Source: Escherichia coli (lineage in GTDB: Bacteria > Pseudomonadota > Gammaproteobacteria > Enterobacterales > Enterobacteriaceae). Taken from it: 64,000 bases of DNA. Shown here piece after piece: positions 4,875-64,000 of this stretch. The first letter of the stretch is position 1. Each line of letters begins with the position of its first letter. The notes beneath the pieces were generated by a model that worked only from the letters and a program-made list of their open reading frames with translations, did no database searches and was not told the DNA's origin. The translations under genes were made by a program, and so were the position numbers. Location: assembly GCF_046105845.1 (NCBI RefSeq), contig NZ_CP151004.1; one strand, 5' to 3'.

Positions 4875-5482
4875 TTAACACGTAAAATCGGTAACGGCTG
4901 GAAATCATTCAATACTCGCACTATCGGAAGTTCACCAGCCAACCGCAGCACGTTCTTGCATACGACGTGTCTGCGGTTTTTCAACCATTCAGATACAGCA
5001 CTCTCATAACATTCATTCTTCCGCATTAAAGTATATATGACCATATCACCTTAATATTTTTCTTCTTCAGATAAAAATTGTTATCTATGTATACTTTTAA
5101 ACCGAATCCGTGTAGAGTCTCTACCTAAGTTAGTTCGCAGCTCCCCCTTCAGTTTGCGCCATTAACCTCCTGACTTTTGCCGCTATCTGTAAGCATTCCT
5201 GTATACCTGAAACTACAGGGTTCATCTACGAACTTTAAGAACACCCAGGATAAAAATTGTCAACTATATTATATATAACACCATACTAATTCGAGGCTAT
5301 ATGAACAGCATACTGATAATCACTTCACTACTTATCATATTCAGCATTTTTGGTCATGCTCTAATAAAATTAGGGATTGGCATATCCAATAACCCGGACA
5401 AAACAGATGTATAAGTCAACATATCCTGAATCAGACATACAATATTGCAATGAAAACCAATAATATTTTAAGGAATATCTTC

Positions 5483-5716
5483 ATGAAATCAAAAGACACC
5501 CTAAAGTGGTTCCCTGCGCAGCTTCCTGAAGTCAGAATTATCCTGGGAGATGCTGTCGTGGAAGTAGCAAAACAGGGAAGACCTATCAATACCAGAACAT
5601 TGCTTGATTACATTGAAGGAAACATAAAGAAAAAGTCATGGCTGGATAACAAAGAATTATTACAAACAGCGATATCAGTTCTTAAAGACAACCAAAATTT
5701 AAATGGTAAAGTGTAA
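5483..5716 (+). CDS. YdfK/YnaE-like cold-shock-induced prophage protein
   Basis: MKSKDTLKWFPAQLPEVRIILGDAVVEVAKQG matches remembered Qin/Rac YdfK/YnaE; sits beside the pin gene as in Rac/Qin; AT-rich leader. Confidence 0.55.
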   Translation: MKSKDTLKWFPAQLPEVRIILGDAVVEVAKQGRPINTRTLLDYIEGNIKKKSWLDNKELLQTAISVLKDNQNLNGKV

Positions 5717-11442: not shown

Positions 11443-15203
<3,761 letters not shown>

Positions 15204-25451: not shown

Positions 25452-25775
25452 TTTGTCGCTCCATGCGTTTGCTCTTCACTTGCGGCTAAAAATATAACGT
25501 CAAATCACTCAGCATGAAAGAGTGAAAGTTTCAGCGCGTTTCCCTTACATAATCTGTCGTTTGTATTCTCTTCAGGCATACCGGAAAGACTAGGTATTGT
25601 CACACAACCAATACCATCGACAATCGAGATTTATATCTATTCGGTAATGTTTAAATATAACAAAACCCCGTAAAAACGAGGTTTATGGGTATTTTGTTGT
25701 CTGAAATTTATGCCGTTTAAAATCATGACGTTAGAAGCACTGTTTTTTAACGATGGCGACAAAATGGCGGCAGCG

Positions 25776-57649: not shown

Positions 57650-59167
57650 GTGAAATGTGGTGATTGTAATTGGAACTGGGATGAAGAAACTACCTTTATA
57701 TTAGACGACGAAGAGGAAATTCTTTCCAAAGACAAACTTAATCGGAGACACTATGCAGAATATCTATATTTTTATCTTAAGGAAAAGGGGCAAAAGAACA
57801 ACACGGTAATCAACCTTAATGCAGAATGGGGAGCTGGTAAAAGTTTTTTCATAAAGAGATTTTATAACTCAATAAAAGATGCACACCCATGCGTTTACAT
57901 TGATGCCTGGAAGCAAGACTTTTCTGATGATGCATTTTTAACCCTTTTTTCTTCTTTGTCACAACAATTGCAAACATATGCAGGAAAACTTGATGCTCGA
58001 TTGATACAAAGCGGCCATGCTATCGGACGCTTTACAAAAGGTGTTCTACCTGAAATCATATCTGGCCTAATCAAGACTTATGCAGGAGTAGATAACGTAG
58101 GTGATATAGCCAAAGAAGCCTCATTAATAATGCTGAAGGAACACCAGGAAAAACTGAAGAGCATTAAGGTATTAAAAAAAGAACTAACGTTATGGTCTAG
58201 GTTGGCATATGAAAATAGTTTTTCATGTCCTATATTTATCTTTATAGATGAATTAGACAGATGCAGGCCAGATTATGCAATTTCTCTTTTAGAGATTGTT
58301 AAACATATATTCGATATTAAAAATTTTGTCTTTATTATTGCTACTGACACAGATCAATTACAACATTCAATCAAGAATGTTTACGGTAATGATTTTTCCG
58401 CAAATGACTATTTAGGCCGTTTTTTTCATAGAAGATTTACTTTAAAACAACCTGAACTTAAAGATTTAATTAATGGTGTTATTGGTGATTATATTGGTAC
58501 CGATTTTGAAAATATCACATCAAAAACATACCCACTAACAGCAACATTAGAAGACTTTTCAATAAATATTTCCAACGTATTTGAAGCATTTGGGTTAAAT
58601 CTAAGAGACTCAATCCGAAATACTGAAAGGTTAATAGACATTCTTAAATCTGATTTAGTCAAAAAGAAAGTAGATTATATTTTTATAATTTCGCTAATGA
58701 TTATATATGATAAGGATCGTCAAATTATAGATGGACTAATTGGTCGAAGAAATGCAGCACAACGTTTCACTGATTCGATAAAGCAAAGCTCCAATTTAAA
58801 AGGTGTTTCTCAAGCCATCCTTGAATTAAATCTTGATACAAATCAGCAAAGAATAGGTGTCAATTATATCTATAGAACGGCGAGCAGTAGATTATTCATC
58901 TCACAGATCGAGCCCAAAATAAATTTAACATTAATAAATTACTTAGATGTTGCATTGTATTTTATTAATAATATAAACATGCTTAAATCAAGTATAAAAA
59001 ACAATGGGCAAAATTCACTAATGATTATATCTCAACAAGGCCCTATTGATGGTGATACAGCTATAAAGTATTTGCAAGGAGCCCTTATAGAGAATGGTCT
59101 GAATACATCTTTTTATGCCTTACATAATTACATTGAATTAATTGAACTGGCCACATCATTTGATTAA
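57650..59167 (+). CDS. KAP-family P-loop NTPase
   Basis: 505 aa, GTG start after GGAG; Walker A NAEWGAGKS; Walker B IFIFIDELDRCRPDY; AT-rich by eye. Confidence 0.7.
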   Translation: MKCGDCNWNWDEETTFILDDEEEILSKDKLNRRHYAEYLYFYLKEKGQKNNTVINLNAEWGAGKSFFIKRFYNSIKDAHPCVYIDAWKQDFSDDAFLTLFSSLSQQLQTYAGKLDARLIQSGHAIGRFTKGVLPEIISGLIKTYAGVDNVGDIAKEASLIMLKEHQEKLKSIKVLKKELTLWSRLAYENSFSCPIFIFIDELDRCRPDYAISLLEIVKHIFDIKNFVFIIATDTDQLQHSIKNVYGNDFSANDYLGRFFHRRFTLKQPELKDLINGVIGDYIGTDFENITSKTYPLTATLEDFSINISNVFEAFGLNLRDSIRNTERLIDILKSDLVKKKVDYIFIISLMIIYDKDRQIIDGLIGRRNAAQRFTDSIKQSSNLKGVSQAILELNLDTNQQRIGVNYIYRTASSRLFISQIEPKINLTLINYLDVALYFINNINMLKSSIKNNGQNSLMIISQQGPIDGDTAIKYLQGALIENGLNTSFYALHNYIELIELATSFD

Positions 59168-59253: not shown

Positions 59254-60306
59254 ATGGCAGTACGAAAACTCACCACAGGAAAATGGCTTTGCGAATGTTA
59301 CCCCGCCGGACGTAGTGGGCGTCGTGTGCGTAAACAATTCGCCACCAAAGGCGAAGCACTGGCTTTTGAGCGTCACACGATGGAAGAAACCGAAGCAAAG
59401 CCCTGGCTGGGTGAATCAGTGGATCGTCGAACACTGAAAGACGTGGTTGAGCTATGGTTCAAACTACATGGTAAATCTCTGACTGCTGGGCAGCATGTCT
59501 ATGACAAATTGCTGCTGATGGTTGACGCTCTGGGCAATCCCCTTGCAACTGATCTAACCTCTAAAATGTTTGCCCACTATCGAGATAAACGCCTGACAGG
59601 TGAGATCTACTTCAGTGAGAAATGGAAGAAAGGAGCAAGCCCGGTCACCATTAACCTGGAGCAAAGCTATCTAAGTAGTGTTTTTAGCGAACTATCCCGC
59701 CTGGGCGAATGGTCGTATCCGAACCCACTGGAGAACATGCGAAAATTCACCATCGCAGAAAAAGAGATGGCATGGCTTACCCATGAGCAGATTGTTGAAT
59801 TACTAGCTGATTGCAAACGTCAGGACCCAATTCTGGCACTGGTAGTTAAGATATGCTTAAGCACAGGCGCACGCTGGCGAGAAGCCGTAAATCTTACCCG
59901 CTCACAGGTGACCAAATACCGAATTACCTTTGTAAGAACGAAGGGGAAGAAAAACAGAAGCATCCCTATCAGTAAAGAGCTTTACGAAGAGATCATGGCG
60001 CTTGATGGGTTCAATTTCTTCACAGACTGCTATTTTCAATTTTTATCCGTGATGGAAAAAACGTCTATCGTGCTCCCTCGCGGTCAACTCACACACGTTC
60101 TGCGCCATACGTTTGCGGCGCACTTCATGATGTCGGGTGGAAACATTCTGGCTTTACAAAAAATTCTCGGACACCACGATATAAAAATGACTATGCGTTA
60201 CGCACATCTGGCACCGGATCATCTGGAAACGGCGCTCCGTTTCAATCCTCTGGCAACGCTGCCAAGTGGCGACAAAGTGGCGGCAGCGGTTGGCATTACC
60301 CCGTAA
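59254..60306 (+). CDS. int: tyrosine integrase (P2/186 Int family)
   Basis: MAVRKLTTGKWLCECYPAGRSGRRVRKQFATKGEALAFE; LSTGARW; HxLRH; terminal Y region MRYAH. Confidence 0.9.
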   Translation: MAVRKLTTGKWLCECYPAGRSGRRVRKQFATKGEALAFERHTMEETEAKPWLGESVDRRTLKDVVELWFKLHGKSLTAGQHVYDKLLLMVDALGNPLATDLTSKMFAHYRDKRLTGEIYFSEKWKKGASPVTINLEQSYLSSVFSELSRLGEWSYPNPLENMRKFTIAEKEMAWLTHEQIVELLADCKRQDPILALVVKICLSTGARWREAVNLTRSQVTKYRITFVRTKGKKNRSIPISKELYEEIMALDGFNFFTDCYFQFLSVMEKTSIVLPRGQLTHVLRHTFAAHFMMSGGNILALQKILGHHDIKMTMRYAHLAPDHLETALRFNPLATLPSGDKVAAAVGITP

Positions 60307-60442
60307 TAACCACCACTGACCACCAACCCAACTTATTGTTTTTACTCTAAGTTATTGTTTTCATTAACCCGTTTACATAAATGGGTAATTTGTATTGTTG
60401 AATAGCATCTGATGAGAAATTGATGCTAATATTATAAACATA

Positions 60443-60616
60443 CTAGATTAAATCAATCTTGATATCATAGCTTTCAAGACCAGTCATTTTTTCCCGTGCA
60501 GTAAACTGGATACTGGTAACTTCTTTCCCGGTCTTTTTCTTAAGCTCAATGATTTTTTTTGTTATATATTCAGAAATATCTGCTTCTGTTTTTGTTTTTA
60601 ACTCTTCAATGTTCAT
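60443..60616 (-). CDS. GnsA/GnsB-family small protein
   Basis: ORF 60443-60709; MNIEELKTKTEADISEYI...FTAREKMTGLESYD matches remembered GnsB. Confidence 0.7.
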   Translation of the reverse strand: MNIEELKTKTEADISEYITKKIIELKKKTGKEVTSIQFTAREKMTGLESYDIKIDLI

Positions 60617-60788
60617 CATTTCCTCTTTTAGTCTGTTATGACTTTCCTGGTACACAGTAGTGTCAATTATATGGAGCAAACGTATAAAAGATAAGATGAA
60701 ACATCGCAATAATCAACATACGACGGTCTAAATTTCACACAAACAGATAAAGATGATTATCATTTATTATCAATGCATTAGAATCAAA

Positions 60789-61019
60789 TCAATTCAAGAG
60801 TCTCATTGCTGCTTCCAGAATTTCTTCTGAAGTTACATGTCGATCCGCTGCTACATAAATGACTTTATGATCTCCGGTCAGAGATGGAAACCCTGCAGCC
60901 ATTACAGTGAGGTGTGTTGTTTCGCCATTTGGATATTCACGCATGATGGTGTTAACTCCGGTCATCACTGGCACTACCATTGCTGGTTCAGAGTTAAAAA
61001 AAACTATTATTTTTTTCAT
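60789..61019 (-). CDS. hypothetical small prophage protein
   Basis: ORF 60789-61058, internal ATG at 61019. Confidence 0.35.
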   Translation of the reverse strand: MKKIIVFFNSEPAMVVPVMTGVNTIMREYPNGETTHLTVMAAGFPSLTGDHKVIYVAADRHVTSEEILEAAMRLLN

Positions 61020-61290
61020 AATGTTACCGTAATATGTGAGTATCCATCGACTAGACACTAAGCAAAAAAGCTCCCGAAGGAGCCTTCATTTTCACTTTCT
61101 TAAATCTAACGACAGACGGCTAACATTTAAGTATTGTGAAATATTATCAAATGTAATCATCATTGATTTACAAAAGATACATTTTGCCCCGAAAGGATTC
61201 CTGTCAGAAACATCAAAAGATGATGTTCTATACTGAGAACCATGGCAACACGGGCATCTAAAGTGAATATGGTTTGTAATATTTTCTACC

Positions 61291-61503
61291 TCAAAGTGCC
61301 ACTACATGAACAGCCGCGGGGCCTTTAGGTCCGTTCTCAATACCAAATTCGACTTCCTGATTCTCAGTTAACGTTTTGAAATCGTTGCTCTGAATAACTG
61401 AGAAATGGACAAACACATCTTTGCTACCATCTTTCGGCGTGATGAAACCAAAACCTTTTTCAGGGTTAAACCATTTCACTAAACCAGTCATTTTGTTAGA
61501 CAT
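61291..61503 (-). CDS. CspA-family cold-shock protein (CspI/CspB-like)
   Basis: [23 protein letters not shown]...VHFSVIQ RNP motifs; long AT-rich leader. Confidence 0.9.
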
Positions 61504-61866
61504 CATTATTACCTTTTGAAGAAGTTAGCCCTTGGGCAGAATGGTCCGAAAAAAAATATCAGAGAGAAAAACCAACAAGGAGATCTCAAGAGGTACAAAT
61601 AATAAAATTATAACAATGACTGCTTCAGATAATTTTGTAACAAACCAGAACACCATTAACGCATGATTAACCAACCATAGCAAGGATTACTTTTGTAAAG
61701 AAAAACACACGAATGAAACAATAGCTTTATTTATTAATAAAACGTGTCATTCTGTCTAATGACCTTTTATCTTACCCTTAAGATTTCAAGGATTTTGACT
61801 CATGGAAGAGTCCTTTTTATTTAAATTTCACATTCAGCGCTAAAAATAATCCGATTTAATATTAAT

Positions 61867-62894
<1,028 letters not shown>

Positions 62895-63215
62895 GGATAT
62901 TTATCAGGATTTATCGGCTTCAAATCCCCGGATATGTTAAATCTTACCTCACCAGTGATGGGCACTGGCGGGAGGAGGATGTCAATCTGATAAACACAGA
63001 GGTGACTATGGATTACACAAATCTACCAAAACAAACTTTTGCTGATTTAATCGCACTCAGGCAAGCAGTCGTAGCTCTAATCAACTTGTTGCCGGAGAAG
63101 GAAAAGGAATTAGTTAAAGCGCTTCTTAACAGAACTGCCGCCGATTTTTCATCATATCCACTGACAGATGACCTTGCGGACCTTCCTGAATTAATTGCAG
63201 CGTCCGCCATTAAGC

Positions 63216-63767
63216 TTACTGAAGAGATTTACCCTCCTCAAAAATCTTCACAAAATTCCTGCGAGTAACTTCAATGCAATAATCGTAAAACGCCGCAAAC
63301 TGCTCATCGCGGCGTTTTTTTTCATCTTCAGAAGGGATCAGCACCGACAATTTTTTATTCAGATCAGCGACGCTGCCCTCCAGTTTTTCAATGGGCGATT
63401 CAATATCATCTTTTTCTGACCGCAATGCCGTCGGTGGCGTCTTCAGAGAACCAGTAATTCTTCCCGGTAGCTTTCCTTTGTAGGTTATCCACACATTCTG
63501 CGCCTCTAAAATTATGGGGCGCTTTTCCGGCGACTGCTCATCCCCTACACATAACCCGGCAGCAACATCCAGGAATACCTGTCTGATTCTCATTCTGGCT
63601 GCTGCCTCATAAAACTCCAGCGCGGCACCTTCAACACGGTCCAGCGAGATGTCCAGGTCAAAAATTTCACCGTCAAAGCGTTTTTTGTCCCGTAAGGCTA
63701 CAGTTACCGCCACTTTATTCTCAAAATTGCGGACTCCTTTCACAACCAGTTCATAGTCTTGTGTCAT
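63216..63767 (-). CDS. hypothetical protein inserted between holin and endolysin
   Basis: ORF 63216-63788 (TTG); ATG at 63767 with purine-rich RBS. Confidence 0.45.
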   Translation of the reverse strand: MTQDYELVVKGVRNFENKVAVTVALRDKKRFDGEIFDLDISLDRVEGAALEFYEAAARMRIRQVFLDVAAGLCVGDEQSPEKRPIILEAQNVWITYKGKLPGRITGSLKTPPTALRSEKDDIESPIEKLEGSVADLNKKLSVLIPSEDEKKRRDEQFAAFYDYCIEVTRRNFVKIFEEGKSLQ

Positions 63768-63771
63768 TGGA

Positions 63772-63987
63772 TTACTCTCTTCTCGCAACCTTACGCCTGT
63801 CTTCTTTAATCTTGAAATAAAGGTTTGTCAGATACGTCAGCAGGCCAAAAACCAGACTACCCAGCACACCGATTGCAGCCCACTGTGACGGAGTTACTTT
63901 ATCGAGTAACTGCAATGCCCAGAAACCAGCATTACCAGCCGATGTGCCATAGGCGATACCTGTTGTTAACTTATCCATTGATTTCAT
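63772..63987 (-). CDS. holin (EssD/EssQ-like)
   Basis: [26 protein letters not shown]...[14 protein letters not shown] matches remembered EssD. Confidence 0.85.
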
Positions 63988-64000
63988 ATCCTCACCCCGA

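Follow-up and report, generated by a model that had tools for sequence, protein, structure and literature searches.

The 64,000-nt stretch of Escherichia coli DNA analyzed here (contig NZ_CP151004.1 of assembly GCF_046105845.1; hereafter the window) carries two small genes resembling gnsB and cspI close to one end, and a third one resembling ydfK close to the other. A reading made from the sequence alone had described them as a cluster of cold-shock and stress morons, i.e., lysogenic-conversion cargo of a Qin-like prophage, and the question is whether this description holds and what the cluster consists of. Very probably, the block is the standard accessory (moron) set of a Qin-like lambdoid prophage, which possesses its own signals and is co-oriented with the late operon. 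The region is real, ordinary, and already known; K-12 annotations include its genes, which earlier work has described as prophage morons. Our analysis adds a corrected map with five genes, an ATT start codon, an internal terminator, and a full-length YnfN.

Gene content, position, and distribution of the block

All three genes named in the sequence-only reading were confirmed with matches far beyond chance, the GnsB-like and CspI-like genes on the minus strand within 60443–61503 and the YdfK-like gene at 5483–5716(+). The interval even coincides with the exact gene ends: the gnsB stop codon finishes at 60443, and the ATG of cspI begins with its A at 61503. However, comparison with annotated genomes revealed that the block holds five genes instead of two. 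Absent from the earlier description were ynfN, ynfQ, a remnant of ynfR, the intrinsic terminator at 61064–61087(−), and a ynfT/YnaM-like small open reading frame (ORF) next to ydfK; all coordinates are collected in Table 1.

CspI is a member of the CspA family, with 106 bits against Pfam PF00313 (cold-shock domain, CSD; cut-off 27), and its translation contains a single CSD in which both RNP1 (KGFGFI) and RNP2 (VFVHF) are visible. It is identical to K-12 CspI in 69 of 70 residues and to K-12 CspG in 54 of 70. An assignment as CspG was rejected, the score of 135.2 against the NCBIfam CspG equivalog being below its cut-off of 144. GnsB exceeds the PF08178 cut-off of 27 by far (114.5 bits), belongs to the GnsA/GnsB family, shares 53 of 57 residues with K-12 GnsB and 36 of 57 with GnsA, and matches the GnsA crystal-structure sequences 4XO1 and 4XO2 (E 8e-20 for 4XO2). 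YnfQ reaches 115.2 bits against PF23641 (YmcF-like, cut-off 27) with the CPCC...CIFC pattern visible, and is identical to K-12 YnfQ at 59 of 62 positions and to YmcF at 42 of 62. The gene is missing from the mechanical ORF list because of its ATT start, which sits 10 nt past the cspI stop codon. Five loci, among them K-12 Qin, the K-12 cspG locus, Citrobacter, and one more distant locus, conserve this succession of a stop codon, a GG-rich box, and an ATT start (10–11 nt past the csp stop).

For ynfN, the window holds an intact 76-aa frame. In K-12, a T8 run close to the 5′ end has lost 1 nt (window 60995–61019; approximately 10110–10185 in L003), which accounts for the 51-aa form annotated there. 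The 25 N-terminal residues in question are still conserved in homologues that share only 51% identity, and the 76-aa form is conserved in Citrobacter. In phage Tritos, the 76-aa frame is likewise intact, though the record annotates only a 156-nt (51-aa) ORF; among database clusters, both lengths are common. The AlphaFold2 model of YnfN is confident (predicted local distance difference test, pLDDT, 88.9) with five strands and a C-terminal helix, and its comparison with structures returned no recognizable structural relative.

At the far end of the prophage, YdfK belongs to the YdfK/YnaE family (phrog_2718) and has the same neighbors as in Qin, beside the pin invertase. Its ORF can also be read as 88 aa (5450–5716(+)), which is the form annotated in Tritos. 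An intact mass of 8772.78 Da was reported under the UniProt YdfK entry (PMC5594050); this value appears more consistent with the K-12-annotated 77-aa product starting at 5483. The same work detected YdfK and YnaE after refrigeration.

With regard to position, the block lies between Rz and the terminase genes in both E. coli and Citrobacter prophages, and all four block genes (the ynfR remnant aside) are co-oriented with the lysis and packaging genes. As expected of morons, its base composition is unlike that of the flanking phage genes, with 34.7% guanine plus cytosine (GC) compared with 47.1% in the adjacent lysis genes and 50.4% in the whole window. The earlier attribution to Qin was correct, since gene order and orientation are those of K-12 Qin, and the same synteny was found in Ec1119, phage Tritos, and Citrobacter prophages. 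In the lambdoid prophages of Citrobacter, the order at this position is Rz-CSD-YmcF-like-YnfN-GnsB-Nu1. Of 5,426 complete E. coli genomes, about half (2,729) contain the block, and in 2,099 of these the match extends over 80% or more of the 1.6-kb query (60300–61900) that includes it. Many E. coli genomes match it at 99.9% identity, and it was also found in seven phage records at 94–99.7% identity. A divergent locus beside icd in an enterobacterial assembly (L007, 3037–4228) contains CSD and YmcF-like genes flanked by two YnfN paralogues (59% and 35% identity), and no GnsB. Thus, the triad of CSD protein, YmcF-like protein, and YnfN persists even where gnsB is absent.

Proposed transcription units and their signals

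The label of morons was further supported by RNA sequencing (RNA-seq) of an LF82 lysogen of Tritos (PMC9928086 and its supplements; ten samples, i.e., five conditions in duplicate), in which CspI, GnsB, and YdfK were expressed well above the prophage background. Normalized values in lysogeny broth were 955 for cspI, 274 for gnsB (174-nt gene), and 51 for ynfN (156-nt gene), compared with 8–9 for the flanking Rz and ybcV genes (PMC9928086). Over the ten samples, cspI correlated with ynfN (r = 0.91), the latter being approximately 15-fold lower, and not with gnsB (r = 0.07). These correlations fit a cspI-ynfQ unit whose terminator leaks into ynfN and a gnsB unit that is independent of it. In K-12, long-term stationary phase brings a joint rise of cspI, ynfN, ydfK, ynaE, cspB, and cspF, and loss of cspI lowers competitiveness (PMC7406224). 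Some labels in the Tritos study deserve a comment. LF82_0907 (174 nt), labeled YnfN with "27x background" in Table 1/S1 of PMC9928086, is gnsB by coordinates, length, and spacing, and LF82_2833 (267 nt), labeled 'DNA binding transcriptional regulator', is the YdfK homologue. The S1 labels appear to be shifted by one row relative to the Tritos record (L013).

Which signals could account for these units? Alignment of the regions upstream of K-12 cspI, cspG, and cspB and of the Citrobacter copy revealed the invariant element ATGCGTTAAT, and the more distant L007 copy differs by one base, reading ATGCCTTAAT. This element contains a TGn-extended −10 hexamer (GTTAAT), which a consensus promoter scan misses because of the T at position 2. 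As TTGCTA lies 17 nt upstream of it, we infer a csp-type promoter followed by a leader of some 147 nt. The cspI mRNA passes the threshold of the Rfam cspA thermoregulator (RF01766), the match covering 61245–61650(−) and model positions 1–428 with E 2e-30 and 116.8 bits, for a gathering score of 78. However, the leader searched alone as a control reached just 11.2 bits (E 0.69), so that the score is driven mostly by the coding region, and the leader fold was not more stable than that of shuffled sequence (minimum free energy z −0.77). GGTTTG and GCC-AA-GGC blocks are common to the cspI, cspG, and cspB leaders. The K-12 cspI gene is cold-induced according to Wang et al. 1999, as cited in PMC7406224.

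Downstream of ynfQ, the terminator hairpin is the second conserved signal. In Citrobacter, hairpin and U tract are kept despite changes in both arms of the stem (GGCTCC/GGAGCT to GGCCCC/GGGGCC), and ATC replaces the ATG of ynfR. Translation of ynfR was therefore rejected as the conserved feature at this site; the hairpin is kept without the ATG, and thus the terminator is the conserved element. In the window, ynfR is cut to a remnant by a nonsense change, and RefSeq flags its equivalent as 'too short'. The K-12 YnfR is cold-induced (PMC6001520).

A more speculative idea concerns the regulation of this hairpin. CspA-family proteins are known transcription antiterminators. The hairpin between ynfQ and ynfN might be a Csp-sensitive attenuator that is opened by abundant CspI to license ynfN, in which case the CSD protein, YnfQ, and YnfN would form a conserved functional triad; we consider this quite unlikely.

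In front of gnsB, 172 nt hold two overlapping promoter candidates, either of which would leave a leader of approximately 45–65 nt, and the TTGATT-17-TATCTT candidate is conserved in Citrobacter. Upstream of ydfK, the Rfam search gave no relevant match and no csp-like leader, and the terminator scan found none. The claim of long AT-rich leaders can thus be maintained for cspI only; for gnsB and ydfK, the candidate promoters leave approximately 30–65 nt. On the whole, the own signals typical of morons consist of terminators, which were found, and of candidate promoters, for which conservation argues.

The 3′ end of gnsB is a special case. In uninterrupted prophages, a terminator-like hairpin follows the gene (fold −11 kcal/mol in Ec1119), and its counterpart in K-12 is located immediately 3′ of gnsB. 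In the window, the nested prophage discussed below was inserted between the gnsB stop codon and this hairpin, leaving gnsB without its likely terminator. The gnsB transcripts may now enter the nested element (60381–60442 onward), antisense to its integrase gene.

From these signals, the following mechanism can be proposed. The first unit, cspI-ynfQ, would start at the csp-type promoter with its long leader, and if it behaves as published for cspA and cspI, its mRNA would be more stable and better translated when cold. Its products would be the RNA chaperone CspI and, via the ATT start, the zinc-ribbon protein YnfQ. Most of these transcripts would stop at the hairpin terminator, and read-through would provide a low ynfN expression that tracks cspI. 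The second unit, gnsB, would have its own promoter. According to two works that both cite Sugai 2001 (bioRxiv 10.1101/2024.03.27.586906; PMC10607373), unsaturated fatty acids increase when GnsA or GnsB is overexpressed, and such an effect of overproduced GnsB would fit a membrane adaptation to cold. Finally, ydfK would form with ynfT a unit of its own at the opposite end of the prophage, induced by stress and cold.

Several points weigh against the reading as a cold- and stress-responsive accessory set. The expression evidence comes from relatives, and the correlations were derived from only five duplicate conditions in a 94%-identical phage that is not the present one. Furthermore, the nested prophage took away the likely terminator of gnsB. 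A thermosensing cspI leader rests on the cspA/cspI literature and the shared motifs, not on computation. Lastly, YnfN, YnfQ, and YdfK are common and csp-co-regulated, and they are still without an assigned function. The earlier term "small regulators" fits loosely: CspI is an RNA chaperone, GnsB alters lipid composition, and the other three have no assigned role.

Unlikely alternatives: addiction, lytic development, or defense

Other roles of the block can be considered as well. Pfam and RefSeq name the GnsB family 'GnsA/GnsB toxin / addiction module toxin', ymcE-gnsA is counted among the type II toxin–antitoxin systems of E. coli (PMC8484670), and ynfN holds the position of ymcE in the paralogous chromosomal locus. 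GnsB could consequently be a toxin and the upstream ynfN its antitoxin, an addiction pair that stabilizes the prophage like the reported YmcE-GnsA. However, YnfN was rejected as a YmcE-like antitoxin, as the two proteins are unrelated with a best local alignment of 6 residues, and the block contains no ymcE homologue. In addition, the 11-nt overlap of ymcE with gnsA contrasts with the 172 nt, including candidate promoters, that separate ynfN from gnsB, and in the Tritos lysogen, gnsB RNA is approximately 5-fold more abundant than that of ynfN and varies independently. Judged by gene content, YnfN follows the csp gene rather than gnsB, which the divergent locus with its triad and without GnsB illustrates. 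Hence, we regard an addiction pair as very improbable.

Alternatively, the genes might be late-operon passengers that aid lytic development of the phage, with the CSD protein acting as chaperone or antiterminator on late mRNA when cold and any benefit for the lysogen being secondary. The orientation shared by the four genes with lysis and packaging genes speaks for this, as does the fixed position from Rz to Nu1/terminase in E. coli and Citrobacter phages, on account of which Q-antiterminated late transcripts should read through the block; intact inducible phages also retain it. On the other hand, the block has its own putative csp-type promoter and terminators, it is transcribed 30–100 times more than the neighboring lysis genes in the uninduced lysogen, and it persists in defective prophages such as K-12 Qin and the prophage of the window, in which an IS3 element has taken the place of 6.3 kb of tail genes. 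A primarily lytic role therefore seems unlikely to us, although it is compatible with the moron reading. A third idea, an anti-phage defense cassette with a cold-shock-domain effector as in some retron systems, arises from weak matches of CspI to the PADLOC model CSD_V (52.5 bits) and the NCBIfam retron Se72 effector (48.7 bits versus a cut-off of 82). These represent generic CSD homology, below the curated cut-off where one exists, in a protein that is nearly identical to K-12 CspI (69/70). Neither a reverse transcriptase nor msr/msd adjoins cspI, and GnsB, YnfN, YnfQ, and YdfK have no PADLOC match; this idea is effectively refuted by the sequence. The accessory set of a Qin-like prophage with its own signals remains the reading that we prefer.

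The nested prophage and the closest known systems

Table 1. Position, strand, and supporting evidence of the features in the 64,000-nt window.
Feature	Position	Strand	Evidence
Chromosomal yjjU-osmY-prfC	1 to ~4500		Mapping against Ec1119
One Qin-like prophage	~4500–25697 and 60381–64000		Mapping against Ec1119
ynfT/YnaM-like small ORF, 37 aa, upstream of ydfK	5301–5414	+	Pfam YnaM 93.3 bits; annotated in Ec1119 and K-12
ydfK homologue, 77 aa	5483–5716	+	76/77 identical to K-12 YdfK; phrog_2718 at 159.8 bits
IS3-family element, 1,258 bp	11691–12948		Mapping against Ec1119
Terminator-like hairpin, 3′ of gnsB in uninterrupted prophages, now 34.7 kb away	25663–25684	−	Scan; Ec1119 fold −11 kcal/mol
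Left attachment (att) core ATGGGTATTTTGT, 12/13 identical to right copy	25685–25697		
Nested P2/186-family prophage, 34.7 kb	25698–60380		Mapping against Ec1119, BLAST breakpoints
KAP-family P-loop nucleoside triphosphatase (NTPase) adjoining nested integrase	57650–59167	+	PADLOC PDC-S20, E 9e-78
Nested prophage integrase	59254–60306	+	
Right att core, 13 bp ATGGGTAATTTGT, junction of nested and Qin-like prophage	60381–60393		BLAST breakpoints; compared with Ec1119 empty site and rcdA-side site
gnsB, 57 aa	60443–60616	−	Pfam GnsAB_toxin 114.5 bits, E 2e-33
Candidate gnsB promoters: TTGATT-17-TATCTT, overlapping TTATCT-17-TATAAT	60666–60716	−	Sequence reading (inferred)
ynfN, full-length 76-aa form	60789–61019	−	phrog_3425 at 186 bits
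ynfR remnant, 12 codons (21 in K-12), overlaps terminator hairpin	61051–61089	−	K-12 alignment, TAT to TAG
Intrinsic terminator, 9-bp stem, UUCG loop, U6 tract, between ynfQ and ynfN	61064–61087	−	Palindrome scan, fold −15.1 kcal/mol
ynfQ, 62-aa CxxC...CxxC zinc-ribbon protein, ATT start	61092–61280	−	Translation; Pfam YmcF-like 115.2 bits
cspI, cold-shock-domain protein, 70 aa	61291–61503	−	Pfam CSD E 9e-31; K-12 identity; annotated cspI in 99.9%-identical genomes
cspI 5′ leader, ~147 nt, 32.7% GC	61504–61650	−	Conserved csp-type −10 to ATG
cspI promoter (inferred): −35 TTGCTA (61683–61678), 17-nt spacer, TGc-GTTAAT −10 (61660–61655), AT-rich upstream	61655–61683	−	Sequence reading, alignment

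The nested 186-like element postulated earlier is indeed present in the window as a P2/186-family prophage, inserted in the Qin-like prophage at a point 50 bp 3′ of the gnsB stop codon, and Ec1119 provides the corresponding empty site. It had also been proposed that the gene set was split to either side of this element. Geometrically, this is correct. Causally, it is not, since ydfK and gnsB are already approximately 25 kb apart in Ec1119, at opposite ends of the structural-gene block, and the nested element thus did not split the set. The junction was absent from all 5,426 complete E. coli genomes in the collection. The nested phage has relatives, one of them with CI, CII, and Fil genes, whose normal place is beside rcdA, and the integration site looks like a secondary att site. 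The KAP-family NTPase next to the integrase, which also matches PifA and QatA more weakly, is probably defense cargo. Relative to Ec1119, the IS3-family element replaces approximately 6.3 kb of tail genes, from J to within the tape-measure gene, so that the Qin-like prophage is defective here. Within the lysis region, a sub-threshold GcvB-like Rfam match (18 bits) at 63146–63323(+) ends in a strong hairpin with a U8 terminator, which comes after an 88-aa ORF (63002–63268) that is antisense in this region.

Among the closest known systems is the cryptic prophage Qin of K-12, which carries cspI-ynfQ-ynfR-ynfN-gnsB as well as ynfT-ydfK adjoining pinQ, with the same content, order, and orientation. 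There, too, the block is located between rzpQ and the packaging end, and the DNA identity is 92.7% over 60445–62904. Differences concern ynfN (51 aa in K-12, 76 aa here), ynfR (21 codons in K-12, 12 here following the nonsense change), and the chromosomal location, as the prophage of the window is found beside prfC and not ydfJ. In addition, ydfO/ynfO are missing downstream of gnsB in the window, where the P2-family prophage follows instead, 50 bp past the stop codon.

The K-12 chromosome holds a paralogous block, cspH / cspG-ymcF-ymcE-gnsA, in which the gene order is the same and the csp gene is likewise followed immediately by a zinc-ribbon gene starting with ATT. The third gene is the sole exception, YmcE being unrelated to YnfN. 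In contrast to the block described here, ymcF, ymcE, and gnsA overlap without a terminator or spacer between them, and the locus is not within a recognizable prophage. For the cspA thermoregulator RF01766, the likeness consists in the family threshold passed by the cspI mRNA and in the −10 region and leader blocks shared with cspG and cspB. However, ynfQ instead of a terminator comes after the cspI coding region, and the leader alone scores just 11.2 bits. Finally, the inducible lambdoid phages 2H10, mEp460_ev081, PhiR63_1, HannyBb, and Tritos (LF82 prophage 3) carry all 1.49 kb of the block at the same position, with 94–99.7% identity. Their structural modules are complete, whereas the prophage of the window lacks approximately 6.3 kb of tail genes at the IS3 element and harbors a nested prophage.

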